Source: a virus
Lineage: Duplodnaviria > Heunggongvirae > Uroviricota > Caudoviricetes
DNA length: 14,521 nt
Reading direction: 5' to 3' (one strand)
Virus record (IMG/VR): IMGVR_UViG_2563366855_000007
Coordinates: 1-14,521 of that record
How positions within the stretch are numbered: the first letter of the stretch is position 1; each line of letters opens with the position of its first letter. The notes beneath the pieces were generated by a model, which saw nothing but the letters and a program-made list of their open reading frames with translations, searched no databases and was not told the DNA's origin. Position numbers and translations under genes: made by a program. Below are positions 1 through 14,521 of the stretch, in pieces.

Positions 1-411
1 TCAGTTCCTATCCTTCCAGTTGCCTTCCTGCAGCCCCCCCTCCCTGCTGTATACCCCGGTACCACAACGCGGGCAGCACTTTTCTCCTTCATAATCTTCG
101 TCACACATCACACAAAACCACTTTCTCACCTTCACCGTATAATCCGGAACCGTCATACCCTGCAGATGCAAACGACGGGCCTCTTTCTCTGCCGGGTCAA
201 GCCAGGTGCATCGCAGCAGGATTTTCTCAGCGACAGTCATCTGGTCATGTTCAAACCACGGTGGTTGTCCGTCATTGCCCCGCTGAAGTGTTAACGGGCA
301 TCCACAGGACACACAGCACAAAACGTCCTGGCGGTTGTGCTTCGCTGCTTCTTTCGCCGTAACAAAATGGCCTTTGCTGTCATTCGCCATATAACAGTTC
401 AGAATTCGCAT
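1..411 (-). CDS. Zinc-ribbon protein, paralog A (about 136 aa), function unknown
   Basis: ATG at 409-411 preceded by AGGAGG Shine-Dalgarno; TGA stop at 1-3. Several CxxC pairs and a PWFEH motif shared with the neighbouring ORF 399..800. The longer track ORF (to 498) has no RBS. Confidence 0.55.
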   Translation of the reverse strand: MRILNCYMANDSKGHFVTAKEAAKHNRQDVLCCVSCGCPLTLQRGNDGQPPWFEHDQMTVAEKILLRCTWLDPAEKEARRLHLQGMTVPDYTVKVRKWFCVMCDEDYEGEKCCPRCGTGVYSREGGLQEGNWKDRN

Positions 412-800
412 ATTTCCTCCTGAGTTGTCCGGGGAATACTGAATCCTCCGGTCTGGCAGTGTGTGCAGTACCGCTCCCCATAATAATCGTGGTGACATTG
501 TCTGCAGTGCCAGCTGGCTTTACGCACCACGGGTAAGGCATCCGGTACGAATTGCTGCAGACGTTTAATCAACTGTATTTCTCTGCGCTCCGGCCTGACA
601 TAAGGGCACTGTTGACCGTGCTCTGTCAGCCTGTCGTCAGTGTGTTCAAACCAGGGAAGTTCAGTGTCGTATTGCGGATGGTATCTGAGTGCACTGCCAC
701 ACAAGTGGCAGGTGTAGTGAGCATAAGGTGCGGCCTGTACAGTACGGGCGCCCGTCAGACGTCCGTTGCTATCAAGAGCGAGAAAGGATTTTGCGTACAT
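399..800 (-). CDS. Zinc-ribbon protein, paralog B (133 aa), function unknown
   Basis: ATG at 798-800 with AAGGAA-like SD; stop at 399-401 overlaps the start of paralog A by 13 nt (coupled). Shares PWFEH and the W-x-C-x2-C ... Y-x-G-E ... C-x2-C-x-T-G layout with paralog A. Confidence 0.55.
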   Translation of the reverse strand: MYAKSFLALDSNGRLTGARTVQAAPYAHYTCHLCGSALRYHPQYDTELPWFEHTDDRLTEHGQQCPYVRPERREIQLIKRLQQFVPDALPVVRKASWHCRQCHHDYYGERYCTHCQTGGFSIPRTTQEEICEF

Positions 801-965
801 AGTATATGTTCCTTACCGTCAGACGACACGCAGGCAACAGCCGTCCCGGTACGGGCAGCGTGGTCAGGTGTGAATGGCGGTTTCAGTTCAGTCTCATAAG
901 GGAAAATCAGTGTGGTGGCCATGAACACGTCATCACACTGAAGTCAGATAACTCGTCTGTCTGGC

Positions 966-1535
966 TCAGCCACGACTGCAGCCAAAGTTGCGCTCATCGG
1001 TGCAGTGAGCTTTGGTATGCTCCTTCGCCAGATAGTCAGCACGTTCCAGCACTTGCTGAAAGCCGGTGTCATCATTACGCGCCAGCCACACCGCCGGCCA
1101 GGCCGGAAAATGCACCAGCGTGGCATGGCATCCGGCATCCACCCCCAGGGCACTGCACCAGGCCTGTTCAATCATTCCGGCCAGTGATCCCGGAGCGCGG
1201 TAATCACCGGCACGACACCAGGTATCCCGGTTGACCAGCAGCATCAGATGATAGTGTTTTTTACCTTTGCACTCCCCAAACTCCCGGGCCCAGACGTAAT
1301 GCAGAGTGGTGGGATGCACGCGTTTACCTTCCCGATGCTTACGTTTCTGGTAAGCGTCGATTCGGGCTTTCAGGGCATTGATGAAGCGGGATATCACAGC
1401 TGCGTCCGTTGCTGCCGGTACATCCGGGAAACGCAGGTCAACCCGCAATGCCGTCAGGCGGGGATGAACATTCAGTGCGTGCCGCACTGTCTCACGAATA
1501 CGTTGCTGCCAGAAGGGGTTGTATTTGTAGGTCAT
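966..1535 (-). CDS. YfjJ/YagK-like (inovirus Gp2 family) protein
   Basis: ATG at 1533-1535 with GGAGAT SD 6 nt upstream (the track start at 1571 is a GTG without RBS). N-terminal YKYNPFWQQRI and RVDLRFP motifs recalled from the YagK/YfjJ family of E. coli cryptic prophage islands. Confidence 0.65.
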   Translation of the reverse strand: MTYKYNPFWQQRIRETVRHALNVHPRLTALRVDLRFPDVPAATDAAVISRFINALKARIDAYQKRKHREGKRVHPTTLHYVWAREFGECKGKKHYHLMLLVNRDTWCRAGDYRAPGSLAGMIEQAWCSALGVDAGCHATLVHFPAWPAVWLARNDDTGFQQVLERADYLAKEHTKAHCTDERNFGCSRG

Positions 1536-1667
1536 GGTTAAATCTCCGTATGGTTCATACGGAATAGCCACGTCGTAAAAAATGCGCAGAGTCCCTGAAG
1601 TGACCTCCGGCAGGGCACTGTCTCAGGCACTCTGTGATAACCCGAACGGTCGTCTCCGGACTGACGG

Positions 1668-1696
1668 TTGAATTTTCAGCGTTGTTTTTTTAATGT
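1668..1696 (+). promoter_or_regulatory. Sigma70-like promoter for the small zinc-ribbon gene
   Basis: TTGAAT (1668-1673), 17-nt spacer, TAATGT (1691-1696); about 40 nt upstream of ATG 1735. Confidence 0.4.
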
Positions 1697-1734
1697 AAAA
1701 AACCGGTTACGGGTAAGGCTGTGAGGAGGGAGTG

Positions 1735-1935
1735 ATGGTGATACGCAAAAAGAAGTGCAGGGACTGTGGAAACGCGATTACTCATAATACAGTGTGTTGC
1801 CCGTATTGTGGTTCTGTCGACCCCTTCGGCTATTACCGGAATACAGACCGTATCGTTACCATACTGCTGGCACTGATTATTGTGGTCCTGCTGACTACTG
1901 TCAGCGTCAGTGTGTATATACTGTGTAGCTGGTGA
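1735..1935 (+). CDS. Small zinc-ribbon membrane protein (66 aa)
   Basis: ATG 1735 with GAGGAGGG SD at 1723-1730. N-terminal C-x2-C ... C-x2-C zinc ribbon (CRDCGN...CPYCGS) followed by one hydrophobic helix (IVTILLALIIVVLLTTVSVSVYIL). Confidence 0.55.
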   Translation: MVIRKKKCRDCGNAITHNTVCCPYCGSVDPFGYYRNTDRIVTILLALIIVVLLTTVSVSVYILCSW

Positions 1936-2265
1936 GATAACGGTTCATGTATCCCCTGAGCTGACAGTGTACCGGGTATATTAAGCGTAACCGACAGGTT
2001 CTCCTTCATACCATATTAAATTTTTCCAGGTATTGCCGCTGCCTTATTTCGTCCCATACAGGAAAACTCGTCTGGGTTTCTGACAAATACGCGAAACTCA
2101 CAGCCCCTCAATATCAACCACACGCCGTAAGCCGGTAATACCTGATCAGACATGAGATAAATGAAGGGGGATCCGTGAGATAAATAACGAATTGGAGTGG
2201 GTTAACATGGGTTCTGGTGAACAGAACTGAAATTCTTTTCCGCTATACGATAGATAAGTCGGGCA

Positions 2266-2295
2266 TTGAAATCATCCTTCCTGGCAACTTAGAAT
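2266..2295 (+). promoter_or_regulatory. Sigma70-like promoter upstream of the 53-aa ORF
   Basis: TTGAAA (2266-2271), 18-nt spacer, TAGAAT (2290-2295). Confidence 0.35.
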
Positions 2296-2338
2296 CGAGT
2301 TTGCTGAAACATGACCCGCAACAAAAAGGATGATTCCA

Positions 2339-2500: not shown

Positions 2501-2503
2501 ACA

Positions 2504-3136: not shown

Positions 3137-3173
3137 ATTTTCTCCCTGCATCCTGAATACTAAAGAGAGAGCA

Positions 3174-3209
3174 TAAAAAAAGCACGGTAAGGGGTCTACC
3201 GTGCTTTTA
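3174..3209 (-). terminator. Rho-independent terminator ending the Mor operon (possibly bidirectional)
   Basis: Perfect 10-bp stem (3180-3189 / 3197-3206) with 7-nt loop. On the minus strand it is followed by a run of six U; on the plus strand by a shorter T-run (tttt). Confidence 0.7.
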
Positions 3210-3250
3210 TACAATAAGGAGATTTTTGAAAGGACTTTAACAAGCAGGAA

Positions 3251-3649
3251 TTATCTGGATTTGTTAACGTCTTTCGTCTCCTCTGGCAGATCTTCATCAA
3301 ACAACCTGCCCTGCATCCGATCCAGTTCTTCTTTTCTGACCCGCTTAACCACGCTGTAGACCCACTGAAGCGAAACACCAAACTTGCGGGCCAGTTCGTG
3401 GTGGTTGCGTCCGTTAAACTCCCTGAAGATTTCCCGGTCGCGCTGACTGACCTTCCATACCATGCCCATCGGGAAATAAACGTTTTGCCCGCCCCAGACC
3501 TGCATCATTCGGTTCGCGACGGCCTGACCAATCTGGTCGGCAATTGCGGGCTCAATATCAATAATCTCGCGAACGGTCTCAGAGGTATGCTGTGCCAGCT
3601 CCACCAGGAGTTCCGGCCCTTTACTTCGAAACTGATTCAGGTCGCTCAT
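3251..3649 (-). CDS. mor: Mor-family transcriptional activator (Mu middle operon regulator homolog)
   Basis: ATG 3647-3649 with GGGAG SD. Motifs GGQNVYFP ... RDREIFREFNGRN ... LARKFGVSLQWVYSVVKR match the Mor/C family pattern recalled from Mu Mor. Confidence 0.85.
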   Translation of the reverse strand: MSDLNQFRSKGPELLVELAQHTSETVREIIDIEPAIADQIGQAVANRMMQVWGGQNVYFPMGMVWKVSQRDREIFREFNGRNHHELARKFGVSLQWVYSVVKRVRKEELDRMQGRLFDEDLPEETKDVNKSR

Positions 3650-4073
3650 GTTTGACTCCCGCAGCTCTGCGCTGCCACTTCTTCAGTTTCTCAATAACAC
3701 TGCTTGCCTGTTCAGTACTGAGCCAGCGCAGGGCGCTGATGCCCGTTTCCCGCTTGATCCACCGCGCTAATGCATTTTCTGAACGGTCACGAACAATGCC
3801 GGCAGCAGCCATTTCAAGCCATAGCGCACGGATTTTCCTGGACTGCGGATGGTTATCCAGCGGTAAACCGGAGCTGGCTTTTCCGGCAGGCTTAACGCGA
3901 AAGCCTTTCCTTTTCATGGATTCCAGCACGCAGTTTAGTTGTGTGGTATCCATTCCTTTGGTTGAGGCTTTACCGGTCAGCCCCTGTAACATCTGGCGGT
4001 AGGTGTCTTCATCCATACCCAGTTCATTACGGGCAATATGAATGAGCTGGATAAGACGTTGTTTAGTCATCAT
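3621..4073 (-). CDS. gemA: GemA-like protein (Mu gp16 family)
   Basis: ATG 4071-4073 with AAGGAG SD; 3' end overlaps the mor start by 29 nt. N-terminal RLIQLIHIARNELGMDEDTYRQMLQGLTGKAS resembles the gp16/GemA family. Confidence 0.78.
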   Translation of the reverse strand: MMTKQRLIQLIHIARNELGMDEDTYRQMLQGLTGKASTKGMDTTQLNCVLESMKRKGFRVKPAGKASSGLPLDNHPQSRKIRALWLEMAAAGIVRDRSENALARWIKRETGISALRWLSTEQASSVIEKLKKWQRRAAGVKHERPESVSK

Positions 4074-4278
4074 CGTTGCTCCTTTTACCTGCGCCACCGA
4101 TATAATCGACATATAAAGGAAGCGCCACAGGCCAGCACAGGAACATCACCGACCAGCTAATCCAGTAGCCGGCACCACTGTAACGTGAATAAAACCCTGA
4201 ACGGCGGTGCAGTTCAGCAGTACACCAACCGACAAAACAATACCAGAACAGGGCACATACAACAGATTCAGCCGTCAT
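4063..4278 (-). CDS. Small two-TM membrane protein (71 aa)
   Basis: ATG 4276-4278 with G-rich SD; overlaps the upstream ORF stop by 11 nt and the gemA start by 11 nt (coupled). The hydrophobic sequence MTAESVVCALFWYCFVGW ... WISWSVMFLCWPVALPLYV supports the two-TM call. Confidence 0.45.
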   Translation of the reverse strand: MTAESVVCALFWYCFVGWCTAELHRRSGFYSRYSGAGYWISWSVMFLCWPVALPLYVDYIGGAGKRSNDDD

Positions 4279-4498
4279 TCTGAATATCCCCCCAACTGAT
4301 ATGAATATTACGGGCAGCAATGACAGGGTCGTTATTCCACCATGCACCTGACATGTATTTTTCAACCTGTTCGCGTCCGGCAATAACACCAATTGTGATC
4401 CCCGGCCTGACGTTCTTAAAAAAGGCGCGGGCAAAAAGGTATCTGGCAGATATTCGGCAGGCTTTTAATTTCCGGCTGTTACCTGATAGCGTAATCAT
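4268..4498 (-). CDS. Hypothetical protein (76 aa)
   Basis: ATG 4496-4498 with GGAGG SD; ATGA stop/start overlap with the upstream gene. Confidence 0.45.
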   Translation of the reverse strand: MITLSGNSRKLKACRISARYLFARAFFKNVRPGITIGVIAGREQVEKYMSGAWWNNDPVIAARNIHISWGDIQNDG

Positions 4499-5178
4499 CT
4501 GGCCTCCAGTTTCTGTTGTTCCTGCCCACTGACCGGGCGGTGCAGTCTGACGTTCTGCCCTTCAAGAAACCCCGCATAGCGCGAGGCGTCGCCATTGCGG
4601 CTTCTTCCCGGTTTACGCGCCCTGGTGGTTTGCGTCTGCGGGTATTTATGTTCCAGCCACTGCTGCATCAGTTCACGTTCGTCATCGGTCAGGGCGAAGG
4701 ACTGTATTTCACTGATAACGGCCAGCACCCAGCCTTCAGCAAACTGGTCACCACGGCTGGTACGGGTGGCAGTTTTTATTCTTTTGTTCTGTGCGCTGAT
4801 ATATTGCTGACGCGCCTTTTTCAGCTGGCGGGCCAGCACTTCCCAGGTGTACGCAGCCAGTGCAGCCCGTTCCCGGTTGCCGTAGAACCCCACACCCGGA
4901 TATGTGCCGGGGTGAATGATGGAGTTAACACCAAATGCCTCGCGGATGATGTTCATCAGGCCCAGCATGTAGCGCGGTGGACGGAGGCTGCCTGTCGGCC
5001 AGTAGTGACTGATGGTTTCATCAATATCACTCATGGCGATGTCGGAATGTGTGATGCCGTGAACATCCATCAGTTTACGGGCACGGCGCAGTGCCAGAGC
5101 GGCCTCGTGAGGGTTGCCGGATGCGGCCAGCGCCAGCAACTTTTTCAGTTTCTCAATGTGTTTATCCTGGTCTGTCAT
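4495..5178 (-). CDS. DUF2786-like protein (227 aa)
   Basis: ATG 5176-5178 with GGAGAT SD; ATGA overlap with the upstream gene. N-terminal KLKKLLALAASGNPHEAALALRRARKLM resembles the DUF2786 signature (from memory). Confidence 0.6.
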   Translation of the reverse strand: MTDQDKHIEKLKKLLALAASGNPHEAALALRRARKLMDVHGITHSDIAMSDIDETISHYWPTGSLRPPRYMLGLMNIIREAFGVNSIIHPGTYPGVGFYGNRERAALAAYTWEVLARQLKKARQQYISAQNKRIKTATRTSRGDQFAEGWVLAVISEIQSFALTDDERELMQQWLEHKYPQTQTTRARKPGRSRNGDASRYAGFLEGQNVRLHRPVSGQEQQKLEAR

Positions 5179-5480
5179 TGTTCAGTATCTCCGGTGTACA
5201 TGACGCCCAGCCGTGCGGCAAGGCGTTCCAGTTTTTTCTGTTTGTGGAAGTCAATCAGCCGGTCCATTCCCTGAAGGCGCAGTTGCTCTGTCATGATTTC
5301 CACGTCTGCCAGCTCTGCCGCGAGGTCACTTTCGCTGCCCTGTCCGTTCAGATTGCGGGCAGCACTGGCCGCCAGTTCAGCGGCCTCTTCTGTCAGTTTC
5401 AGGGCCTGTGCGTCCGGCCCGAAACGCTGCAGGGCCAGACGGTAGAGGGCGGTGCGGGTGAGTATGGTGTTCCGTGTCAT
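5175..5480 (-). CDS. MazG-like nucleotide pyrophosphohydrolase family protein (101 aa)
   Basis: ATG 5478-5480. EEAAELA ... AAELADVEIM acidic helix pair is typical of the all-alpha MazG-like NTP-PPase fold. Confidence 0.55.
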   Translation of the reverse strand: MTRNTILTRTALYRLALQRFGPDAQALKLTEEAAELAASAARNLNGQGSESDLAAELADVEIMTEQLRLQGMDRLIDFHKQKKLERLAARLGVMYTGDTEQ

Positions 5481-5489
5481 GCCGCGCCC

Positions 5490-5762
5490 TCAGTGCTTCC
5501 GGCTGACGGTGATGTGCAGGCCGCCTTCTGCAGTGGTTTCCATCCGGTACGGCACCTCATGCTCTGCCGTGTGGGTGAGTGTGTTCACCAGTACCTGCAG
5601 GGCAGCCGCCTTTCCGTTGGTCGCCACAATGGCCTGAGCGGTCATGCTGATTAGCGCCGTCAGGACGTGCTTCACATCGGTGAGGTCGCGGCATTCACAC
5701 TCGTTGACATAGTGTTCAACAAGGGTTCGGGTGCGCTGTCGTGCTTCCTGTGGGGTAATCAT
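5490..5762 (-). CDS. Hypothetical protein (90 aa)
   Basis: ATG 5760-5762 with GGGAGGA SD; ATGA overlap with the upstream zinc-ribbon ORF. Confidence 0.5.
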   Translation of the reverse strand: MITPQEARQRTRTLVEHYVNECECRDLTDVKHVLTALISMTAQAIVATNGKAAALQVLVNTLTHTAEHEVPYRMETTAEGGLHITVSRKH

Positions 5763-5953
5763 TGCGAGTCCTCCCTGTCAGGGCGGGAGAATTCCATGAC
5801 GGGCACGTCTGCCGAAAAATGCTGGCTGCAGTACGGGCAGACCAGGGTGACGCGTACCGCAGGGATGTGGTATTTACCGGACATCACGGCGATGGCGCTG
5901 TGAAAACGCAGGGCTGTTATATCCCTCTCGCACTGAATACATTTAAATATCAT
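5759..5953 (-). CDS. Small zinc-ribbon protein (64 aa)
   Basis: ATG 5951-5953 with GAGGAGA SD 8 nt upstream. C-x2-C (CIQC) ... C-x2-C (CPYC) arrangement. Confidence 0.5.
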   Translation of the reverse strand: MIFKCIQCERDITALRFHSAIAVMSGKYHIPAVRVTLVCPYCSQHFSADVPVMEFSRPDREDSQ

Positions 5954-6050
5954 GATTTAATTCTCCTCTGTTTCCGGCGTGCAGAAGCCCGCGGCGCTGA
6001 CGTCGGAATAAAAAAGAAAATGTTTTTATTAAATAATTAACGTGGTGTGT

Positions 6051-6581
6051 TTACTGCACATCCTGCTCAAAAGGAATTATTGAAAAATCCTCAATGTCGC
6101 TTTTAATGGAAATACCGGGAATATTTTTCACGGCCTCTTTTTCATTCAGGATAGCGTCTTTATTTATTTCCTCTTTTACACGAATAAAGCGCTCAAGCCC
6201 CAGACGTCTCAGTAATTCAATAACATTATCCGCCCCACGGATACTGACTGATGGCGGACGGTTTCGCCACTGCACCTCGCCGGTGGTGAGGTTAGCGAAC
6301 TTCACCTTCCCGTTGCCGGTCAGTTCATCACGGTGTGCCTCACACCATGTCTGAATACCGGACTGCAGTTCGGCCATGCGTTTTTTCAGGCTCTCGGTGA
6401 GCGGGGCATAACGTGCGGTGATATCGCCAATGGCGTCATTCATTTCTGTTTCAGCCCTGACCAGTTCACGTTGTGCGTCACCGAGTAGTCTGATTCCCTC
6501 AATGACCTCTTCACGTGTCCCCGGCACCCAGAGTGCTGCTGCGGCCTTGATACGTTTTGCACCTTTTGTACTTTTTGCCAT
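6051..6581 (-). CDS. gam: Gam (Mu-type host-nuclease inhibitor, DNA-end binding) homolog
   Basis: ATG 6579-6581 with GGAGAAA SD. MAK..KRIK.AAA..VP ... ETEMNDAI ... WCEA.RDELT..GKVK.ANL.TG.V.WR.RPPSVSIRG ... GL.RF.R.K.EINK.AIL ... SIIPFEQ matches Mu Gam as recalled, near full length. Confidence 0.9.
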   Translation of the reverse strand: MAKSTKGAKRIKAAAALWVPGTREEVIEGIRLLGDAQRELVRAETEMNDAIGDITARYAPLTESLKKRMAELQSGIQTWCEAHRDELTGNGKVKFANLTTGEVQWRNRPPSVSIRGADNVIELLRRLGLERFIRVKEEINKDAILNEKEAVKNIPGISIKSDIEDFSIIPFEQDVQ

Positions 6582-6608
6582 TTTTTATGATTTCTCCAGT
6601 TGTGCTGA

Positions 6609-6878
6609 TTACCACAAAGATTCCGGCCACACGACGCGACAGCCGTGCAGTTCGAAAACGCCCTGACGGAAATATCCCCTGTGGTCATGTCCGGTATACA
6701 GATAACAGGCCTTTCCCTGCTCAAGCATGCGCATGCAATGCGCACTCCGGGAAACGCGGATGACAGGTTTGTTACCCCTGATGGTGATGCTTTGTACATC
6801 CGTGTTCGTCGCCTTAAGCGCCATAATGGCTGACTGCACTTTGCTGATTTGCTGGTTGATACCTGTGGTGGATTTCAT
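6609..6878 (-). CDS. Hypothetical protein (89 aa) in the position occupied by kil in Mu
   Basis: ATG 6876-6878 with AAAGGGG SD, 3 nt downstream of the B-like stop. No recognisable motif; the kil analogy is positional only. Confidence 0.45.
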   Translation of the reverse strand: MKSTTGINQQISKVQSAIMALKATNTDVQSITIRGNKPVIRVSRSAHCMRMLEQGKACYLYTGHDHRGYFRQGVFELHGCRVVWPESLW

Positions 6879-6880
6879 TA

Positions 6881-8047
6881 TTAAACCCCTTTGACAACGT
6901 CAGCGTTGACCTGTGGAACCCCGATTTCAGCGGCCAGATTCATGGCGGCTATTACCAGGTTACTGACGGCCAGCGGATACAGCAGGCTGACCATATTTTT
7001 ACGGTGACTTCCCGGATTGCTCAGGCGGGCACGTATGGCATCCACTGCACCGGCGTCCATAATGTCCGTCAGCTGTTTACCGGCCCGTTGCAGTTTGAAC
7101 GTCAGAAATTCTTCAAGGTTATTGTCCAGAGGCAGAAGTTCGACCACCTCACAGCGCTGAACGACTTCACGGACTTCCATATTGCGTTCAGACAGTTTTG
7201 TCGCCAGTTCCGGCTGGCCAATCAGCACGATGGACAGCAGTTTTTTGAAACCGGACTCCAGCTCAAAAAAGCGTTTGAGGTGTTTCAGTGTCGGAATGGG
7301 CAGACTGTGGGCCTCCTCAATCACCAGAACGTGGCTGAACCCCGCCTGGCTGCTGTCTTTCAGGACGCGATGCAACTGGCGAAAACGGGCGTCCTGACTG
7401 CGTCTGATGCTTTCCAGTGGTGCGATGGTACTGATAATGGCTTCGGCAATAGCTGCTGCCTTCAGGGTTTTCCCTTTCACATCGTTGTCTTCCATAGCGA
7501 TGATGTATGGCTCGATAACAATTACCGGCGCATTCTCGCGGTTGATACGTTCAGTCAGGTCGCGGCGCAGCGTGGATTTACCCGCACCGGACTCACCGAT
7601 GACGGCCATAAACCCACCATGACGGGCTGTCTGGTACAGCGCCTCACGCACGTAGCGAATGTCCGGGGTGGTGAACACATCATCAGAACCCTGCATGGCT
7701 TCGTCGGCGAACGGGTCACGGAAAAGACCAAACGCTTTTTTGGTTGCTGGAAATAACACCTGTTTTTTGAGTAACATATTCTCTTCCTCACTGAGGCTCG
7801 TTTTATCTGTGGTACCCGCTGTACGGGGCGTGGCCGCGCCCTGTACAGCATCAAAACTCTTCGTTGTATCAATCCCCTGACTTTCCAGCCAGGACGCAAG
7901 ACGCCGGCGCACTTCTCCGGGGCTGGTGCGGGGCCACGCGTTATGATTCACAATCTGGGCCAGCGTGGCCTCAGAAACATCGACAGCTCTCGCCACCACC
8001 GCCTGTGGAATACGGGCCTCTTTCAGTTGCTGCTTCAGTACCAGCAT
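6881..8047 (-). CDS. Transposition ATPase, MuB-like (AAA+ with N-terminal HTH)
   Basis: ATG 8045-8047 with GAGGAGGG SD that spans the A-like stop (track start 8086 is GTG with no SD). Walker A GESGAGKS, Walker B-like VLVIEEAH, N-terminal HTH (VSEATLAQIVN). Confidence 0.8.
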   Translation of the reverse strand: MLVLKQQLKEARIPQAVVARAVDVSEATLAQIVNHNAWPRTSPGEVRRRLASWLESQGIDTTKSFDAVQGAATPRTAGTTDKTSLSEEENMLLKKQVLFPATKKAFGLFRDPFADEAMQGSDDVFTTPDIRYVREALYQTARHGGFMAVIGESGAGKSTLRRDLTERINRENAPVIVIEPYIIAMEDNDVKGKTLKAAAIAEAIISTIAPLESIRRSQDARFRQLHRVLKDSSQAGFSHVLVIEEAHSLPIPTLKHLKRFFELESGFKKLLSIVLIGQPELATKLSERNMEVREVVQRCEVVELLPLDNNLEEFLTFKLQRAGKQLTDIMDAGAVDAIRARLSNPGSHRKNMVSLLYPLAVSNLVIAAMNLAAEIGVPQVNADVVKGV

Positions 8048-8057
8048 GTTTCCCTCC

Positions 8058-9827
8058 TCAGTTGCCGTTAACAATGCTGATAACACTGCTGCGGGCCGGT
8101 GTGGTCAGCGTGGCCATGACTTCATCCAGTGCGGCTTCCGGTACGCCGTCCGGGTACTGTGCCGTTAACTGGCGGTAATGTTCCGGCGTCCAGGTAAGGC
8201 CGTCGGCGCTGAACTTATCGCGCAGGGCTTTCGCGGCCTCCACATGAGTCATGGGACGTTGTTCAGTGCGCGGCCCGCGTACGTCAGAGGCCTGACCACG
8301 CTTCGGCATATAGGCCGGAAGTGTGGTGTCGTCGATATGTTTATACGGGTCAAGCCGCCCGCCGAACGGCAGCGCCTTCGCCTTGCGTGCGGCGGCTGCA
8401 TCTGCGGCGTTGTCTGTACCGGTAACCAGCGCTTCGGTTTCTTTTGCCGCCATCTGTGCCGGGGTTTCCGGCAGGGCTTTGTAACTTTCGCCAAATACCG
8501 CCGCGCCTTCAGCAAAGCCAAACTCGTTCTTTCTGACCTCTTCGACCAGGAAGAACGTCTCGTGGCCGTCCTCACCGGTCAGAACCACCTGTGCCACATC
8601 GCTGCGCCATGGGTTACGGGTAATCATCAGTTTTTCACCAACCAGTACGCCCGGTACCGTTGATACGTCAAATTCAGTGCCCCGGAACGAGACACGAAGT
8701 TTTGGCGTGACTTTGCGGAGTTCTGGTGCCGCCACAGCCAGTTCACGACATACCTCAACGGAAGGCGCTTTTTTCAGCTGCTCAGCAGTAATCTTCAGCC
8801 AGATATCCGTGCGGGTTTTACCGTGGCGGCTGTGAACAGCCGTGGCGTTAAAGTGGCTGCGCCATTTCGCGGCCAGCGCGTTGAGTTCTTCCAGACTGTG
8901 AACCGGCCGGAACTTCAGACCCGGCTCCAGCTTGCGTTCGATAATGTCACGCGCCTTTTCCACCTGTCCGGTGGCGCGGGCGTTATGCGGCTTGTGCGCT
9001 ATCAGGTCGATGCCCAGTGAGCGGCACATGTTTTTCGTCATACCCGCGGTGTTTGCCGAGCCGGGGTCGAGATAGAGTATTTTCGGCACGCCGTGCAGCA
9101 CGTCTGCGCCGCCACGCTCCTGCATGGCGTTGATAAGCACAGAACACAGGTTCTCACCTGATTCCGCGCCCGTCACATACTCAACGTAAATCCAGCCGCT
9201 GGCATGGTCGGTAATCTCGTAACTCCACACGCGGTCACTGGCGATACGGGCAAGGTTAGCGGGCTTGTTCTTGTAGAACTTCGCGCTGTCCATCACCTGC
9301 AGCCCTTTATGTCCATTGCTCAGGTAGTAAAGCGTGCAGAGTGAGGCGTCAATCTGCCAGACATGATTGGGATGCAGACTGGCCACTTCGGTATGTGGTG
9401 CAGGGGCATCCAGTTGTTCCGGGTGCAGGCCATAGTTACGCAGAGCACGGCTGATGGCATCTTCAGACAACGGGAAAAACTCACTGGTGGTTTCATCTGT
9501 TCTGCCTGCGGTGATAAAGCCGTTAGCCCGCAGGGTTTCCACTGCATCTGCGATGGAATAGAGACGCTTACCGTTCTTGCGGGTGGCCTCACGCAGTGTG
9601 GCAGATATCAGCGCGGCTTCGTCGCGGGTCAGGGCGCTGCGCCCGGCATCGGCGCGTTTTTTGCGTTTATCAGTCACAGATACCTCCTTCAGCCTGCGCA
9701 GCAGAGTGGCGCGGGACATGCCAAGTTCAGCACAGGCAGCGTCGTATACTGCGCCGCGTTTACCATGCCCCGCGTCACGTGCCGCGCGGGCGACATAAAC
9801 CAGTCGTTCAGTCAGGGCAGCATTCAT
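8058..9827 (-). CDS. DDE transposase, MuA-like (rve/integrase core; 589 aa)
   Basis: ATG 9825-9827 with GGAGG SD. Catalytic triad candidates D in HVWQIDAS, D in LYLDPGSANT, E in GQVEKARDIIERK; N-terminal HTH. Sits directly upstream of the AAA+ partner as in Mu A-B. Confidence 0.85.
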   Translation of the reverse strand: MNAALTERLVYVARAARDAGHGKRGAVYDAACAELGMSRATLLRRLKEVSVTDKRKKRADAGRSALTRDEAALISATLREATRKNGKRLYSIADAVETLRANGFITAGRTDETTSEFFPLSEDAISRALRNYGLHPEQLDAPAPHTEVASLHPNHVWQIDASLCTLYYLSNGHKGLQVMDSAKFYKNKPANLARIASDRVWSYEITDHASGWIYVEYVTGAESGENLCSVLINAMQERGGADVLHGVPKILYLDPGSANTAGMTKNMCRSLGIDLIAHKPHNARATGQVEKARDIIERKLEPGLKFRPVHSLEELNALAAKWRSHFNATAVHSRHGKTRTDIWLKITAEQLKKAPSVEVCRELAVAAPELRKVTPKLRVSFRGTEFDVSTVPGVLVGEKLMITRNPWRSDVAQVVLTGEDGHETFFLVEEVRKNEFGFAEGAAVFGESYKALPETPAQMAAKETEALVTGTDNAADAAAARKAKALPFGGRLDPYKHIDDTTLPAYMPKRGQASDVRGPRTEQRPMTHVEAAKALRDKFSADGLTWTPEHYRQLTAQYPDGVPEAALDEVMATLTTPARSSVISIVNGN

Positions 9828-9830
9828 TGG

Positions 9831-10742
9831 TTATGCCTCCAGCCCGTTAATCTGTGGCGTCGACTCAGTCAGCCATGAAGGCGCTGCATTGCCTGTTGGC
9901 TCGTCCGGCAGGTCAAATGTGGAGCGCAGGCTACGCGCTGTGCTTTCCAGTTGACAGACCAGGCCTGCCATGAAGTCTCTGGGGGTATCAATCATGTTTT
10001 CAGCACAATATGCGCACAGCGTCTCAAAAGCGCTGGACAGTCGGACGGCGATGGCAGATTCCGCCTCAACCGCTAATGCTGTTACTTCCGCCCGCAGCTT
10101 CTTAACCTCCTCATCAGGCTCAGGTGGCTGAATACGGGATTTCTTCTCCAGTCTGGTGGAGAGTGAGTCTATTTTTTCATTTTTGTCGGCGAGTACGCGC
10201 TGTTGTGCTGCGTTGGTTTCGCGCGCTTCGCGCAGGGCCTGACGCAATTCACGTACTGACATGCGATCAACATCGTCAAGCGTCAGTCCGGCAACTGTGC
10301 CACCGTCGGCCAGTTCAGCAAGGTCGTCGTCATCTTCAGCAACAAGTTCAAATAATTTTGCCTTACCTAAAAGCGACAACGTTGTCGCTTTTGGCTCTAG
10401 TTTTGGTGAAAGGTATTTCAAAGATGCTTTCATCATTCGTTGTGCTGCGCGCACATGCAGACCAAGTTGTTCTTCTACAATTCCAACAAAGTCCCCGTGA
10501 GGTTCATTTTCTTTGAGAATAATAAGTCGTTTACCTGCTTCCAGCATGGCCTCAGCGCTCTGTGCCATATAAAACCGAGCCTCATGAACTATGCGATCAC
10601 GCTCATAGGGCTGACCATCGCCAAACTGCTGCATGATCTCCATACGATGCTGTGTCATGGCGTTCAGACTGACATTGAGATCATCCGACAGCGGTACCTC
10701 GGCGTTCAGTTCAGTGTTAATCGGTGATTTGGTGCGTCCCAT
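9831..10742 (-). CDS. DUF3102-like protein (303 aa) with acidic linker and coiled-coil
   Basis: ATG 10740-10742 with AAGGAG SD; stop 3 nt before the A-like start. IVHEARFYMAQSAEAMLEAGKRLIILKENEPHGDFVGIVEEQLGLHVRAAQRMM resembles the DUF3102 core (from memory). Confidence 0.55.
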   Translation of the reverse strand: MGRTKSPINTELNAEVPLSDDLNVSLNAMTQHRMEIMQQFGDGQPYERDRIVHEARFYMAQSAEAMLEAGKRLIILKENEPHGDFVGIVEEQLGLHVRAAQRMMKASLKYLSPKLEPKATTLSLLGKAKLFELVAEDDDDLAELADGGTVAGLTLDDVDRMSVRELRQALREARETNAAQQRVLADKNEKIDSLSTRLEKKSRIQPPEPDEEVKKLRAEVTALAVEAESAIAVRLSSAFETLCAYCAENMIDTPRDFMAGLVCQLESTARSLRSTFDLPDEPTGNAAPSWLTESTPQINGLEA

Positions 10743-10752
10743 TTATTACTCC

Positions 10753-11061
10753 TTACAAACGACTACCTGAAATGACACGTTGGTTGATTTCGTTAATGCG
10801 ATCCTGTGCACGTGCCATCTCGTTACTGTGGGCCATAGCGATCTGCAGTAACTGGATGCCCGGCGCGAAACGCCCGTTTTCCAGTTTCAGGGCCAACCCT
10901 TCTTCAATGAGGGTGTTGAGTGCCCGGTTGATGTTTGCCGGTGACTCGTGCAGTGCTGCCGCCAGTTCACCGTTGGAAATACCGTTCAGGGCATGACCGC
11001 GCAGCGCTTTGAGTACCCGGAGGATGCGACTGCCGGAGCTTGAAACATTCGTCTTACTCAT
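10753..11061 (-). CDS. Winged-helix (IclR/MarR-like) DNA-binding regulator (102 aa)
   Basis: Second ATG (11059-11061) has AAGAGG SD at good spacing; the first ATG (11067) is 1 nt from the SD. ILRVLKAL ... GISNGELAAALHESPANINRALNTLIEEGL is a classic wHTH pattern. Confidence 0.55.
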   Translation of the reverse strand: MSKTNVSSSGSRILRVLKALRGHALNGISNGELAAALHESPANINRALNTLIEEGLALKLENGRFAPGIQLLQIAMAHSNEMARAQDRINEINQRVISGSRL

Positions 11062-11113
11062 CTGCATACCTCTTTTGCGATATGTGATAACCTTTTACAA
11101 AGACTCAAAATCT

Positions 11114-11302
11114 TCAGGCTGCCTGAGCTGTTGATTTCAGCCCCAACTTCACGGCGATTTCATGGGATTTACCGTAACGGGCTTTGGTCTGCCCATTGAG
11201 AACGCGGTATACCTCATTGCGGTTGTAGCCGTTTTCTTCTGCCCAGCGGGTGAAAGTGATCCCGCGCTGGCGGAAGAGAGCTTTGACTTGTTCTGCAGTC
11301 AT
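11114..11302 (-). CDS. ner: Ner/Nlp-like small DNA-binding regulator (62 aa)
   Basis: First gene after the early promoter; ATG 11300-11302 with AAGGAG SD. Pattern RQRGITFTRWAEENGY ... GKSHEIAVKLG parallels the Ner/Nlp fold; the assignment is by position and pattern. Confidence 0.55.
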   Translation of the reverse strand: MTAEQVKALFRQRGITFTRWAEENGYNRNEVYRVLNGQTKARYGKSHEIAVKLGLKSTAQAA

Positions 11303-11349
11303 CGTTGTCTCCTTTGTTGATGCAATGATGTTTGCCTTATGTGTGATAG

Positions 11350-11378
11350 ATTATGGTGCAGATTACCTCACCAGTCAA
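11350..11378 (-). promoter_or_regulatory. Early promoter (Pe-like) in the divergent repressor/ner switch region
   Basis: On the minus strand TTGACT (plus 11373-11378), 17-nt spacer, CATAAT (plus 11350-11355), about 45 nt upstream of the ner-like ATG. The spacer contains TGCAGATTACC and a nearby AGATTA repeat, candidate operator sites. Confidence 0.55.
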
Positions 11379-11402
11379 CTTAAAGAGTGCAGAAAAACTC
11401 AC

Positions 11403-11741
11403 ATGATCGGGTTACGTATTAAAGAAGAAAGAGAGCGTCTATCTCTTACACAGCAAGGGTTGGCTGATGCTATAGGTGTGGCAAAGAGAACTTTCATTGA
11501 TTGGGAAAAAGATCGCACTTCTCCTACTGCAGTGCAGTTATCTGCACTATCAGAAATCGGTGTAGATATTTTGTATGTAGTTACTGGGGTGCGGAGTCAG
11601 CCTGTTGTTGCACCTTATGTGTCACAAGAAAAGAAAGAGTTAATGGATGCATTCGACGAAATGAGCCCCGAACAACGGAGGGCAATTCTTGAGGTCGGCA
11701 AAGTCTTCATTCAACCCAAACCAAGCAAACTCGCAGGCTGA
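11403..11741 (+). CDS. XRE-family (Cro/CI-type HTH) repressor, divergent from the early operon
   Basis: ATG 11403 opens directly on the HTH (LSLTQQGLADAIGVAKRTFIDWEKDRTSPT); weak RBS. The track ORF from 11250 begins with GTG and would run through the early promoter. Confidence 0.65.
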   Translation: MIGLRIKEERERLSLTQQGLADAIGVAKRTFIDWEKDRTSPTAVQLSALSEIGVDILYVVTGVRSQPVVAPYVSQEKKELMDAFDEMSPEQRRAILEVGKVFIQPKPSKLAG

Positions 11742-11827
11742 TTTTGACCTGGACACAAAGGACAGGTGGTTGATCTGGATGCTTTCAGAAAACATCGCCA
11801 GTGACATAGTGGAAGTTGTTTGGTTTA

Positions 11828-11859
11828 CCGGAAAGCATTGTGCTTTCCGGTTTTGTTTC
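11828..11859 (+). terminator. Rho-independent terminator downstream of the repressor gene
   Basis: Perfect 10-bp stem CCGGAAAGCA / TGCTTTCCGG (11828-11837 / 11841-11850), 3-nt loop, then TTTTGTTTC. Confidence 0.75.
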
Positions 11860-12622
11860 AGAAGTTGCAGATTACCAGTTCACGGCGCGGCGTGGATTTC
11901 CCCGCCAGACTGTAGTTGATGTTCACTGTCTGTATGTTCAGTCCAGTGAACACCTCGCGCATCTGTGGGATATCGTTCACCGAAATTATCATTTTTCCTC
12001 TGATGCACCGGGCCAGCTCTGCCAGCCGCGAGTAGTTCCCTTCAGGAAAATCCACACCATAGCCTTCCGTACCCAGGTACGGTGGGTCGCAGTAGAACAG
12101 TGTGTGCGGACGATCATAACGCTCAATGCACTGTTGCCAGTCCATGTGTTCTATGACTGTTCTGGAAAGCCGCAGGTGTGCTGCTGACAGTTCTTCTTCA
12201 ATACGCAGCAGGTTGAAGCGTGGCGGGGATGTGGTGGAGGTACCGAAGCTGTGCTCTGCCACCTTGCCGCCAAACGCCTGCTTCTGAAGGTAGTAGAACC
12301 GTGCCGCACGCTGGATATCCGTCAGTGTTTCTTCCGGGGTGATCTGCAGCCATTTGTAGATCTGACGGCTGACCAGCGCCCATTTGAACTGGCGGACAAA
12401 TTCTTCCAGGTGATGCTTTACCACCCGGTACAGATTCACCAGTTCACCGTTGATATCATTGATGACTTCGATCTTGCCGGGTGTCTTAAGAAAATAGAGC
12501 GCTGCTGCCCCACAAAACGGCTCCACATAACATTCATGCGCCGGAAACAGCGGCAGGATGTGTTTTGCCAGGCGACGTTTGCCACCAATCCATGGAACGA
12601 TGGGTAATGTCTTCATTTTCAT
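11858..12622 (-). CDS. Dam-family (D12 class) DNA N6-adenine methyltransferase, orphan
   Basis: ATG 12620-12622. N-terminal PWIGGKRRL, motif I EPFCGAAALYF, catalytic DPPY, C-terminal RRELVICNF. No adjacent restriction endonuclease candidate. Confidence 0.88.
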   Translation of the reverse strand: MKMKTLPIVPWIGGKRRLAKHILPLFPAHECYVEPFCGAAALYFLKTPGKIEVINDINGELVNLYRVVKHHLEEFVRQFKWALVSRQIYKWLQITPEETLTDIQRAARFYYLQKQAFGGKVAEHSFGTSTTSPPRFNLLRIEEELSAAHLRLSRTVIEHMDWQQCIERYDRPHTLFYCDPPYLGTEGYGVDFPEGNYSRLAELARCIRGKMIISVNDIPQMREVFTGLNIQTVNINYSLAGKSTPRRELVICNF

Positions 12623-12663
12623 AATCTGTAAGCCTTTTACAATTATTAAAAATATGGCAGGCT

Positions 12664-12770
12664 AGTCTGGTCTCGCGAGACTGACTGAACCTCGGTCGGC
12701 TCACAGCCACTTCTGTGGGACGATGGCCAGCCCGGTGGGTCCGAAGCACCGGGCTGGTCGTTCTTTCATG
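12664..12770. promoter_or_regulatory. Structured non-coding region upstream of the Dam-like gene: 12-bp perfect palindrome plus GC-rich hairpin
   Basis: GTCTCGCGAGAC at 12670-12681 flanked by AGTC/GACT; 11-bp perfect stem CCAGCCCGGTG / CACCGGGCTGG (12727-12737 / 12747-12757) with 9-nt loop, followed on the plus strand by TCGTTCTTTC. Confidence 0.35.
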
Positions 12771-12813
12771 ATGCGGCAGGGATAGTGGGATTTCTGTTAA
12801 TGTGGTTTAGGGA

Positions 12814-13029
12814 TTATCCGGGGCGATTTTCTGACCTTATCCGGTCCAGGGCATAAGTAATACCTTCTGCAAAAACAGAAGTATCAAACTGCTTTTGTAT
12901 TCCCTGAAAATGAAAAGCGGCACGACAGACACTCAGTTCTCCGCGATGTAACCGGATAATATCTTCCAGAACATTGTTCACTGCTTCAGCACGGCGCTGA
13001 TGTTCTGTTAACGTTAATCGGGGATTCAT
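12814..13029 (-). CDS. Hypothetical protein (71 aa)
   Basis: ATG 13027-13029 with AAGGAG SD 6 nt upstream; no recognisable domain. Confidence 0.4.
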   Translation of the reverse strand: MNPRLTLTEHQRRAEAVNNVLEDIIRLHRGELSVCRAAFHFQGIQKQFDTSVFAEGITYALDRIRSENRPG

Positions 13030-13432
13030 GATGCACTCCTTAAATGATGATTTTTATGCACTCACCGGCAAAATATTCTGCCGATTACTGAACACGCATC
13101 CGGCACCTCAGGTTTTGATTTATTCTGGTTTTTTCGATATCCCGGACCAGGTTGATCACGACCAGAAAAAGTGCCGGTATTTTATTGATACGCTGATATG
13201 GCTTCGGGATAACAGCTATATTCGTTACTCTCAGTTGCTGGCTGTGGGAGCGGCTGATGTCGTCCTCACGGAAAAAACGCTCCGTCTGCTCAATGCCACG
13301 CCGACCCTTCTGCAGCCCCGGCCCGCACCATTTAAAGAGTCACTTCTGGATGCAGTAAAAACCGGTGAAAATGCAGTCATCGCTGAATGCGTATCCCGGA
13401 TTATGCGTTACGTGTTTAATGAACGTAAGTGA
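13028..13432 (+). CDS. Hypothetical protein (about 134 aa)
   Basis: ATG 13028 or 13031 with a weak GGGGA SD. The start overlaps the divergent 71-aa ORF start and the 3' end overlaps the P-loop gene by 25 nt, so it may not be real. Confidence 0.3.
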   Translation: MMHSLNDDFYALTGKIFCRLLNTHPAPQVLIYSGFFDIPDQVDHDQKKCRYFIDTLIWLRDNSYIRYSQLLAVGAADVVLTEKTLRLLNATPTLLQPRPAPFKESLLDAVKTGENAVIAECVSRIMRYVFNERK

Positions 13433-14151
13433 GGTTTATCCGCTGTCTGCATAATCCCGATAGCCAGTGCGAGGGGAAGTAATTCCGGGGAAACTCTTTC
13501 AAACAGCGACTCCCATTCTCCTCTCGCCATCACTCTGTCCAGCCCGCCCCCCAGTTGCATTTCAGCAATCTTCCTGATTTCCCGGAACAACGCCGCTTTG
13601 ATCTCTTCGTGCTCAGCTTTATTTTCCGGTGTCAGAATGTATTCGTCGAAGAACCGGGGAGGCTGGTTAACGGGGAGCGTGTTCACCGGGATGTGTTCCT
13701 GTTTCCCGTACTTCGGGGCAGAAAAACATTCTGTTGGCTGACCGGTGAGTTTACGTAGCTCCTTCATGAGCAGCTCCTGATCGTAAACTGTCATCAGTGC
13801 CGCAATGGTGGCATGCAGTGCATCGGGCAGTATCCAGGGTTGCCGGCCCGTGGGGCATATAACATCCAGCAGCTCATTCGTCCGACAGATACGCTCCTCG
13901 CCGTATGACAACAGGCCCTGTCCCGTGTATTCCTCCAGCTTGATCACTGTGCCACCCCGTGGCTTCTGCCAGGTCGTCAGATCATCGCCACTCATACGCC
14001 GCTCATCATCTACGTCTGCAGCATCGACAATGACGCTGCCCCCGAATTCCTGTTTCACCACTTCCTCTATCCGCGCCAATATGTAACTTTTACCGCTGCC
14101 CACAGGACCGGACACGGTGACAGTGATGACCGGATTCAGTGTCTGCGTCAT
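13408..14151 (-). CDS. P-loop NTPase, kinase-like (247 aa), function unknown
   Basis: ATG 14149-14151 with GAGGAGA SD 7 nt upstream. Walker A GPVGSGKS immediately after an N-terminal beta strand (VITVTVSG), as in small-molecule/nucleotide kinases. Confidence 0.65.
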   Translation of the reverse strand: MTQTLNPVITVTVSGPVGSGKSYILARIEEVVKQEFGGSVIVDAADVDDERRMSGDDLTTWQKPRGGTVIKLEEYTGQGLLSYGEERICRTNELLDVICPTGRQPWILPDALHATIAALMTVYDQELLMKELRKLTGQPTECFSAPKYGKQEHIPVNTLPVNQPPRFFDEYILTPENKAEHEEIKAALFREIRKIAEMQLGGGLDRVMARGEWESLFERVSPELLPLALAIGIMQTADKPHLRSLNT

Positions 14152-14281
14152 ATCGTATTCTCCTCTGTGAATAATTCATCGTTTATCCTGCACATCCCGT
14201 ATCCCCGGCTCTCTTAACGCGCTTTAAAATCCTTCGCGCCCTGTATTTGTGATGCTGTCTCCACCAGACAAGGAGACACAC

Positions 14282-14521
14282 ATGAAAAACCTGAAAAAAT
14301 TCATTCCCCCTGTTAAAAAACCTCGCCTCAGCGGCTGGCTGCTGACCTCAGTGCTGTTGCTGGGCACCATCGCTCTGGTCTCGCCACAGCAGTTGCCTGT
14401 TGTGATCTACAAGCTGGCACTCATCACGCTGGCAGCAGTGCTGGGTTACTGGCTTGACCGTTCGCTCTTCCCCAAAGCCCGTCCCGGTCAGTACCTGAAA
14501 CATGACGACAGGCTGATGGCT
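14282..14521 (+). CDS. Membrane protein, 3'-truncated at window end (at least 80 aa)
   Basis: ATG 14282 with AGGAGA SD 5 nt upstream; no stop before the window end. Basic N-terminus then two hydrophobic segments (LSGWLLTSVLLLGTIALV, VVIYKLALITLAAVLGYWL). Confidence 0.55.
   Translation, partial: MKNLKKFIPPVKKPRLSGWLLTSVLLLGTIALVSPQQLPVVIYKLALITLAAVLGYWLDRSLFPKARPGQYLKHDDRLMA

Follow-up and report, generated by a model that had tools for sequence, protein, structure and literature searches.

When a transposase gene in phage-derived DNA is directly followed by an ATPase gene, does the pair belong to the A and B protein families of phage Mu or to another lineage of transposition proteins, and is it still capable of moving the element that carries it? 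This question is raised by record IMGVR_UViG_2563366855_000007 of IMG/VR, assigned to the Caudoviricetes, of which positions 1 to 14,521 form the stretch analysed here (the window, 14,521 nt). An initial annotation described two genes at 6881-9827 as an apparently intact MuA-like/MuB-like pair. We put at roughly 0.9 the probability that these genes encode the transposase (TnpA) and AAA+ partner (TnpB) of a BcepMu-like transposable myovirus prophage (genus Bcepmuvirus), which resemble Mu A and B in function, belong to a Tn552-related lineage, and fall outside the MuA and MuB families. The features of the pair are as follows.

8058..9827, minus strand: tnpA, DDE transposase of 589 aa whose DD35E core is of the rve type; BcepMu gp09 / Tn552-related family; ATG at 9827, stop at 8060-8058
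6881..8047, minus strand: tnpB, 388-aa AAA+ (Pfam AAA_22) ATPase with an N-terminal helix-turn-helix (HTH), homologue of BcepMu gp08; ATG at 8047, stop at 6881
8045..8060, minus strand: junction of the two genes, read from the sequence as TGAGGAGGGAAACATG; holds the tnpA stop codon, the Shine-Dalgarno sequence and the start codon of tnpB, the spacer being 10 nt
9348..9350, minus strand: codon of catalytic D160 (HVWQIDASL), aligned with the first D of the integrase of human T-lymphotropic virus 2 (HTLV-2) and of Tn552 p480
9066..9068, minus strand: codon of catalytic D254 (ILYLDPGSA), aligned with the second D of integrases and of Tn552, and with MuA D336 in a non-significant hhalign alignment
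8958..8960, minus strand: codon of catalytic E290 (TGQVEKARD), 36 residues after D254 (DD35E), aligned with the E of integrase 'GLVER' and of Tn552 'GKIER'
7571..7597, minus strand: Walker A motif GESGAGKST, residues G151-T159 of TnpB, key residues invariant in 20 homologues
7307..7330, minus strand: Walker B motif VLVIEEAH, residues V240-H247 of TnpB, key residues invariant in 20 homologues and aligned to LVIIDEAD of MuB

Both open reading frames (ORFs) lie on the minus strand within the phage early operon, and the translation check gave one terminal stop in each and no interruption. The claim that transposase and partner ATPase are intact was borne out in this way, as an internal stop and the loss of a catalytic residue were both looked for and neither was found. 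The junction reads AAC TGA GGAGGGAAAC ATG, with 10 nt from the stop codon to the ATG, and the Shine-Dalgarno sequence AGGAGG of tnpB overlaps the tnpA stop codon by its last base, as had been described. The same arrangement is kept in the copy carried by Klebsiella phage KP12. The ORF of tnpB amounts to 401 aa when it is counted from an upstream GTG given in the ORF list, and to 388 aa from the ATG.

The candidate D, D and E residues of the transposase were confirmed as D160, D254 and E290, which do not vary among 104 aligned members of the family (32-55% identity); no more than eight columns of this alignment are invariant, and the triad accounts for three of them. The Walker motifs of the ATPase were likewise confirmed. 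The N-terminal HTHs that had been noted in both proteins are supported more weakly. In TnpA, residues 24-50 give a weak match to Pfam HTH_8, various HTH models match other members of the family, and the same residues are helical in an AlphaFold2 (AF2) model, with a predicted local distance difference test score (pLDDT) of ~80. In TnpB, the HTH at residues ~12-36 is matched in homologues by HTH_3 and HTH_24. Comparison with the KP12 copy gave ratios of non-synonymous to synonymous substitution (dN/dS) of 0.067 for tnpA and 0.066 for tnpB, at a dS of ~0.45-0.50. Values of ~0.07 point to purifying selection on both genes, rather than drift.

Family relationships of the transposase

The sequence models that recognize TnpA are those of the retroviral integrase type. 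In Pfam it matches the rve core only (E 1e-8), along with the weak HTH, and in NCBIfam it gives sub-threshold matches to the IS481 and IS21 families. Among 78 diverse members of the TnpA family, 69 match rve, and the only Pfam core matches are to rve or rve_3. Searches of the PDB with the single TnpA and TnpB sequences gave marginal integrase or P-loop matches only. A profile of the TnpA family matched the cores of deltaretroviral integrases (E 6e-11), TnsB of Tn7 (7pik; E 3e-7) and TnsB of Tn6677 (E 0.002), and in these alignments HVWQiD, lDpGsa and GqVEk line up with the integrase D, D and E. The comparison that carries the assignment is with the Tn552 transposase p480, taken from plasmid pN315. 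In hhalign, the TnpA family aligned with p480 at E 5.8e-17 and a probability of 98.8% over 342 columns (residues 33-424 against 36-410), and the alignment takes in the HTH, the core (where the three catalytic residues are all in register) and the Pfam Mu-transpos_C region of p480. The last of these regions corresponds to a beta-barrel, which in MuA is domain II-beta. TnpA gives no Pfam match to Mu-transpos_C there, and its residues ~366-424 align with p480 355-414 in hhalign; the AF2 model, which is a poor one, has six strands at 369-430. From these results a layout is proposed in which residues ~1-147 hold two HTH DNA-binding domains, ~148-365 the catalytic core, ~366-430 the beta-barrel, and ~431-589 a C-terminal region specific to the family. 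The family assignment of these transposases is reportedly treated further by Toussaint and Van Gijsegem in 2017.

It is extremely unlikely that the two proteins are true orthologues of MuA and MuB and that the transposase is a shortened MuA from which a domain has been lost, even though a number of observations would fit such an origin. The two systems share function, gene order, N-terminal HTHs and TG...CA ends, and the non-significant hhalign alignment with MuA is collinear (TnpA 18-444 against MuA 120-568), beginning only after MuA domain I-alpha. When the TnpA family profile is set against 28 MuA homologues, that alignment has E 0.07 and a probability of 0.8%, and neither the first D nor the E falls in register; against MuA alone the probability is 0.1%. 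BLASTP gave no significant match of TnpA to MuA (E 0.47), and MuA is absent from the 60 best PDB matches of the family profile. MuA itself matches the Pfam models DDE_2 (PF02914; E 2e-136), HTH_Tnp_Mu_1 (domains I-alpha/I-beta), HTH_Tnp_Mu_2 (I-gamma) and Mu-transpos_C, yet none of these models matches TnpA or any of the 78 relatives, and no counterpart of domain I-alpha was detected in TnpA. The catalytic residues are spaced by 94 and 36 residues in TnpA, as against 67 and 56 in MuA (D-67-D-56-E), where D269, D336 and E392 are invariant in the MuA alignment. The element also makes 6-bp target-site duplications (TSDs), compared with the 5 bp established for Mu.

The length of TnpA bears on the same alternative, as 589 aa had been taken in the initial annotation to suggest that a domain might be missing. 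An exhaustive homologue search gave 1,082 cluster representatives, nearly all of ~565-644 aa and aligning with TnpA from end to end, and gp09 of BcepMu has 599 aa. The length is therefore typical of the family, in which hundreds of homologues cover TnpA fully, and it reflects another architecture, not domain loss. The comparison with MuA that had been proposed at the outset brought to light no MuA-specific domain in TnpA; the DDE triad was confirmed by the alignments with integrases and with p480. Family-level orthology with MuA and MuB was ruled out by the BLASTP, Pfam and hhalign results. What stands of the label MuA-like/MuB-like is the functional analogy to Mu A and B; family membership does not stand, with E 0.07 for MuA in hhalign against 5.8e-17 for p480. 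With the PHROGs grouping described next, 'MuA-like' is defensible at the level of the superfamily, not at that of the family.

Several points weigh against placing the pair apart from Mu or limit the support for doing so. The PHROGs database, whose clusters rest on remote homology, groups TnpA with MuA in phrog_310 (where the profile positions covered are 129-687 for TnpA and 6-639 for MuA) and TnpB with MuB in phrog_296, which makes a very distant common origin with Mu A and B likely. The AF2 models, built from shallow alignments of 64-93% identity, are poor, with a mean pLDDT of 59 for TnpA (below 50 in the core) and of 64 for TnpB. Foldseek searches with these models led from TnpA to IstA, ShCAST TnsB and integrases at template-modelling (TM) scores of ~0.1, and from TnpB to Cdc6/ORC/RFC at a TM score of 0.35, so that they carry little weight; they agree with an rve fold for TnpA and an AAA+ fold for TnpB but are too coarse for a finer classification. 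The assignment of TnpA to the Tn552-related lineage is retained with these points in view.

Parts specific to the BcepMu-type family may take over tasks that Mu assigns to other portions of MuA, although this suggestion is a tentative one that we regard as doubtful. The conserved C-terminal ~160 aa of TnpA (431-589), absent from p480, and the co-transcribed 303-aa DUF3102-like protein encoded directly upstream of tnpA may replace MuA domains I-alpha and III together with the roles of the enhancer. If true, they would represent new regulatory or partner-binding modules, for example for contacts with TnpB or an unfoldase, or for control of transpososome assembly.

The partner ATPase

TnpB matches Pfam AAA_22 at E 3.6e-20, and MuB matches the same model at E 1e-21. 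Both belong to phrog_296, described as 'DNA transposition protein'. Direct comparison of the two is weak, with E 2.6 in BLASTP and E 0.012 at a probability of 3.6% in hhalign; in the latter alignment the HTH and the two Walker motifs follow one another in the same order. The C-terminal domain Phage-MuB_C (PF09077), which Pfam finds in MuB at E 5e-34, is absent from TnpB, and a profile of the TnpB family gave P-loop matches only in the PDB. These results count, along with those for TnpA, against orthology with the Mu proteins.

The gene tnpB lies directly downstream of tnpA in BcepMu, in KP12 and in every assembly sampled, and its fixed position, 10 nt from tnpA, argues for a role in transposition. 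TnpB is probably the functional counterpart of MuB. It may act in target capture or immunity, as its position, its AAA_22 fold class and the PHROG shared with MuB suggest.

The names under which the protein is filed would suggest something else: RefSeq calls it 'ExeA family protein', the record of phage PhiKM calls it 'Eha protein', and its top NCBIfam match is to the ExeA-like model TIGR03015 (E 6e-19). On this basis TnpB could be a secretion-associated ATPase of the ExeA/GspA type, carried by the phage as cargo rather than as a transposition protein, a possibility to which we attach next to no weight. The TIGR03015 match reaches 68 bits against a cutoff of 324, and both names stem from this sub-threshold resemblance to ExeA-like ATPases. 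Furthermore, cargo would not readily account for a Shine-Dalgarno sequence that overlaps the tnpA stop codon, for the linkage to tnpA retained in all of the copies mentioned above, or for the similar AAA_22 score and shared PHROG of MuB. The order of the motifs in the hhalign alignment with MuB, weak as it is, points in the same direction, as does the N-terminal HTH, and no match to an ExeA-specific region was found. A transposition partner of TnpA is the reading of TnpB that is kept here.

The prophage, its ends and its insertion sites

The 2.9-kb region of the pair has 99.7% nucleotide identity to Escherichia phage PhiKM (PQ738613; genus Bcepmuvirus) and ~89% identity to clone 2 of Klebsiella phage KP12. 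Over its whole length of 14,521 bases the window shows no difference from the Escherichia coli draft scaffold KB732952.1 (assembly GCA_000352005.1). Its prophage part (2143-14521, 12.4 kb) is matched at 99.1-99.6% in 84 of 5,426 complete E. coli genomes (~1.5%) and is collinear with complete prophages of ~37 kb; the copy in TUM13770 is ~37.3 kb long and has all of the head and tail genes. From the left end onward, the genes encode Mor, GemA, small proteins, Gam, an 89-aa protein, the ATPase, the transposase, a 303-aa protein, IclR-like and Ner-like proteins, a divergent CI-type repressor, Dam and a holin. From Mor to holin this is the order of BcepMu, and the plan of the genome is also that of BcepMu, with a bottom-strand early cluster by the left end, a divergent repressor, and then the lysis, head and tail genes. 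The ends and genes around the pair are as follows.

1..2142, no strand: host flank, target DNA of the insertion; part of a genomic island, in which Pfam finds a pair of DUF7828/zinc-ribbon genes together with a YagK/YfjJ ('inovirus Gp2') gene
2143..2190, plus strand: prophage left end, beginning TG; TGAGATAAAT occurs twice in direct orientation, at 2153-2162 and again at 2176-2185 (23-bp spacing), presumed TnpA binding sites
3251-3649, minus strand: Mor-family late activator, a conserved early or middle gene
3621-4070, minus strand: GemA, with Mor the last of the conserved early/middle genes before the left end
6051..6581, minus strand: Mu Gam-like host-nuclease inhibitor (Pfam Phage_Mu_Gam, E 1e-40)
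6609..6878, minus strand: 89-aa gene, 2 nt downstream of tnpB, in the position of BcepMu gp07 (phrog_2041)
9831..10742, minus strand: 303-aa gene of the same early operon, upstream of tnpA across a 3-nt gap; BcepMu gp10 homologue, weak DUF3102 match, phrog_1748
10753..11067, minus strand: 104-aa IclR-like winged-HTH regulator of the early operon, BcepMu gp12 homologue
11114..11302, minus strand: small HTH protein of 62 aa, homologous to BcepMu gp16 and placed where Mu has Ner; its gene opens the leftward early operon
11400..11741, plus strand: HTH_3 (Cro/CI-type) repressor candidate, divergent, BcepMu gp17 homologue
14282..14521, plus strand: holin, first 80 codons, opening the rightward lysis/head/tail cluster and cut by the window edge

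The left end, which reads TGATCAGACATGAGATAAATGAAGGGGGATCCGTGAGATAAAT from position 2143, was placed by the homology with the 84 other E. coli prophage copies, which starts at 2138-2143, and by an empty site that matches up to 2145. The right end, read inward in TUM13770, is TGATGCGCCGCGCGATAAATGCACTCTATCTTGTGCGATAAAT and is laid out in the same way. The termini are of the TG...CA type (TGATCAG... on the left, ...GCATCA on the right), each with two G(A/C)GATAAAT sites 23 bp apart, and these repeats are presumed to be the binding sites of TnpA. A 16-nt inverted repeat (2264-2279 and 2326-2341, 94% complementary, with a 46-nt loop) lies just inside the left end, and the downstream one of its arms shares bases with the beginning of a small ORF (2330-2500). 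No Rfam match was obtained for the window.

Insertion polymorphism, which had been named as a check on activity, was found. In eight assemblies, one and the same left end adjoins eight different stretches of host DNA: the island site of the window, the rcdB/yhjB interval, the inside of rfaH, the yfaV/yfaU interval, the interval between a DUF905 gene and a DUF932 gene, and positions by ydhR, by xseA and guaB, and by a patatin gene. In all four prophages for which both ends were read, perfect 6-bp TSDs flank the element (GCGGAA, GCTCGC, GTTGCG and GCTTAA). The eight sites contradict a single shared attachment (att) site next to an integrase gene. Many complete E. coli genomes have the insertion site of the window empty and at 100% identity, and in the 84 complete genomes with the prophage it never lies at this site.

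With eight insertion loci, perfect TSDs and a dN/dS of 0.07, activity is well supported, and the pair is very probably active in transposition. The suggestion that it forms a potentially active replicative-transposition module is upheld in this respect; the replicative mode is drawn from what is known of the family. Reports of related phages concern the same host: in an infant gut, an E. coli lineage acquired a Bcep-Mu-like phage as a new prophage (PMC5622998), and Bcepmuvirus prophages have been reported in ST131 and among induced gut prophages.

The initial annotation had also referred to missing virion genes, and the window indeed holds no head or tail genes. They are not missing from the element. 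The right edge of the window (14521) lies 2 bases before a 490-N gap in the scaffold (4815-5304 of the scaffold stretch examined), and beyond this gap the same scaffold encodes Phage_Mu_Gp27 (a Mu-type small terminase), a 531-aa protein in the position of the large terminase, and Portal_Mu. The lack of virion genes is thus an edge effect, as the window ends before them. The gap also cuts the holin gene, which is the only reason why the scaffold holin is called as an 80-aa protein, and a second gap of 10 N lies further into the lysis region.

Could the pair belong to a decaying, immobile remnant of a prophage that has lost its virion genes, with ORFs that are intact only because little time has passed? 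The absence of head and tail genes from the window would agree with this. The scaffold of this copy was inspected to ~8 kb past the gap, a part that covers neither its right end nor its tail genes, and as to completeness this counts against the reading of an intact prophage. Nevertheless, a remnant is very unlikely given the terminase and portal genes on the same scaffold, the collinearity of the 12.4-kb prophage part with complete ~37-kb prophages at 99.2-99.6% identity, and the selection, rather than drift, indicated by dN/dS. Moreover, the absence of this particular insertion from 84 of 84 prophage-carrying complete genomes, with the site empty in many others, suggests that it is recent. 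A functional BcepMu-like prophage is the reading that these data favour.

Some further observations concern the neighbouring genes and host DNA. The 303-aa gene may encode a conserved accessory factor; phage KS10 also retains a DUF3102-like protein of this type, although its transposase differs. The RefSeq start of the repressor, at ~11282, overlaps the divergent Ner-like gene (11114-11302) by ~20 nt. The ATG at 11400 would give a 113-aa HTH_3 protein and a divergent control region of 97 bp, and seems the more plausible start. On the host side, window positions 1-1571 hold two adjacent paralogous DUF7828/Zn_ribbon_11 genes and the YagK/YfjJ gene, a segment of which E. coli genomes have a median of 2 and up to 7 copies. 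The region around the empty site of strain Eco889 includes ISL3, IS66 and IS110 elements.

Comparison with named systems and a proposed mechanism

The named system that the element resembles in its whole plan is BcepMu of Burkholderia, reportedly the type of the genus Bcepmuvirus (Summer et al. 2004, J Mol Biol 340:49). TnpA has 68% identity to gp09 over 581 aligned residues (full length), and TnpB has 59% identity over its full length to gp08 (404 aa). Starting at the left end with the Mor-family gene and going up to the repressor, the bottom-strand early genes come in identical order, with the rightward lysis/head/tail cluster beyond, and the left end of BcepMu (TGAAGAGAGGTGAGATATTTCC...GCGCGATATTTCC) likewise starts with TG and has two G(A/C)GATA(A/T)(A/T)T sites 23 bp apart. 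Differences lie in the host (Burkholderia as against E. coli), in the core of the end sites (GATATTT as against GATAAAT), and in the genes for SSB, HU and DUF3164 that BcepMu has where the E. coli prophage has Gam, DUF2786 and Dam. The E. coli BcepMu-like prophages are at least 99% identical in the early region, and each sampled copy occupies a different chromosomal site. PhiKM has the 99.7% identity noted above across both genes, and is unlike the window in that a further gene, of 105 aa, separates its tnpA from the gp10-like gene.

Two of the related records call for comment. The PhiKM record (PQ738613.1) is a permuted 'partial genome' with a coding sequence for a 'Fe2+ ABC transporter permease' at 20200-20544, at the junction of tail fibre and Mor-family gene; this sequence is possibly host DNA attached to the ends of the phage. 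The record of KP12 clone KP12_2 (OM835952.1) is classed in the Vequintavirinae, yet it carries a BcepMu-like early region with the same gene pair; an induced prophage was probably co-purified with a lytic phage here and then filed under the latter's name.

In Tn552 of Staphylococcus aureus, the p480 gene is directly followed by a gene for an AAA_22 ATPase (p271), as the transposase and ATPase genes are in BcepMu. Rowland and Dyke (1990) and Rowland et al. (1995) reportedly give TSDs of 6-7 bp and two 23-bp repeats for Tn552, values with which the 6-bp TSDs and the paired sites 23 bp apart agree. It differs in being a plasmid-borne transposon with a resolvase and no phage, and p480, at 480 aa, is without the ~160-aa C-terminal region of TnpA and is the only one of the two to match Pfam Mu-transpos_C. 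In pN315, the Tn552 p480 gene is followed by an ORF (13288-14046) that is a chimera of an N-terminal AAA_22 part, from p271, with the catalytic domain and HTH of a resolvase. The same chimeric ORF occurs in the other staphylococcal plasmids listed, where it is annotated 'recombinase family protein', and it is probably the product of a rearrangement at the res site.

The resemblance to Mu is one of organization. Both are myoviruses that have TG...CA ends and genes of the Mu type for Gam, Mor, GemA, portal and terminase, and in both a transposase with N-terminal HTHs, an RNase-H-fold DDE core and a barrel (a putative one in TnpA) is followed by an AAA_22 ATPase with an N-terminal HTH, under the same two PHROGs. 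They differ in the lack of significant sequence or profile similarity, in DDE_2, HTH_Tnp_Mu and Phage-MuB_C, which are not found here, in the catalytic spacing, and in the early region, which points away from the phage end in Mu and toward it here. TnsB and TnsC of Tn7 and of CRISPR-associated transposons (CASTs) are likewise a transposase paired with an AAA+ ATPase, and include the TnsB proteins of Tn7 and Tn6677 that the TnpA profile matched. The window has no TnsA, TnsD, TnsE or CRISPR targeting genes, and its element does not insert site-specifically. Near the right end of the prophage, a tail-fibre/assembly segment by a recombinase of the Gin/Hin type has opposite orientations in strains 98194 (405-2689) and SCU-101 (460-2712; positions in the stretches examined), and it looks like an invertible host-range switch, similar to the G segment of Mu, that is still flipping.

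A mechanism can be proposed along the lines described for Mu, Tn7, Tn552 and BcepMu, starting from genes, motifs and ends that are in place in this element. Inactivation of the divergent CI-type repressor would switch on the leftward early operon, which runs from the Ner-like and IclR-like genes through the 303-aa gene, tnpA, tnpB and the 89-aa gene to gam and onward. The N-terminal HTH domains of TnpA would then bind the paired G(A/C)GATAAAT sites at each TG...CA end, and the ends would be brought together. At the DD35E RNase-H-fold site formed by D160, D254 and E290, the 3' ends would be nicked and joined to target DNA with a 6-bp stagger. With ATP bound, TnpB would bring in or choose the target DNA and promote strand transfer, the part that MuB, TnsC and TniB play for their own transposases. 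Lytic growth would proceed by replicative transposition, and virions would package host DNA at both ends. Virion DNA of BcepMu is reported to carry random host DNA at both ends (PMC2771037). Those steps that concern end binding, pairing, nicking and strand transfer by TnpA follow the literature on the four systems, and the function given to TnpB, the replicative growth and the scheme of regulation are suggested by analogy.

The element is of a kind that has already been described, a transposable phage with a Tn552-related transposase. What it offers is a better annotation of genes that RefSeq lists as 'integrase catalytic domain-containing protein' and 'ExeA family protein', and that very probably encode a transposase and its target ATPase. 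A transposable phage carrying this pair is present in ~1.5% of complete E. coli genomes, and its insertion at nearly any site, which in one sampled copy splits rfaH, makes the knock-out of host genes and the reshuffling of chromosomes possible. The case illustrates the published point that a transposition module of the Tn552 type can drive a phage lifestyle in the manner of Mu.

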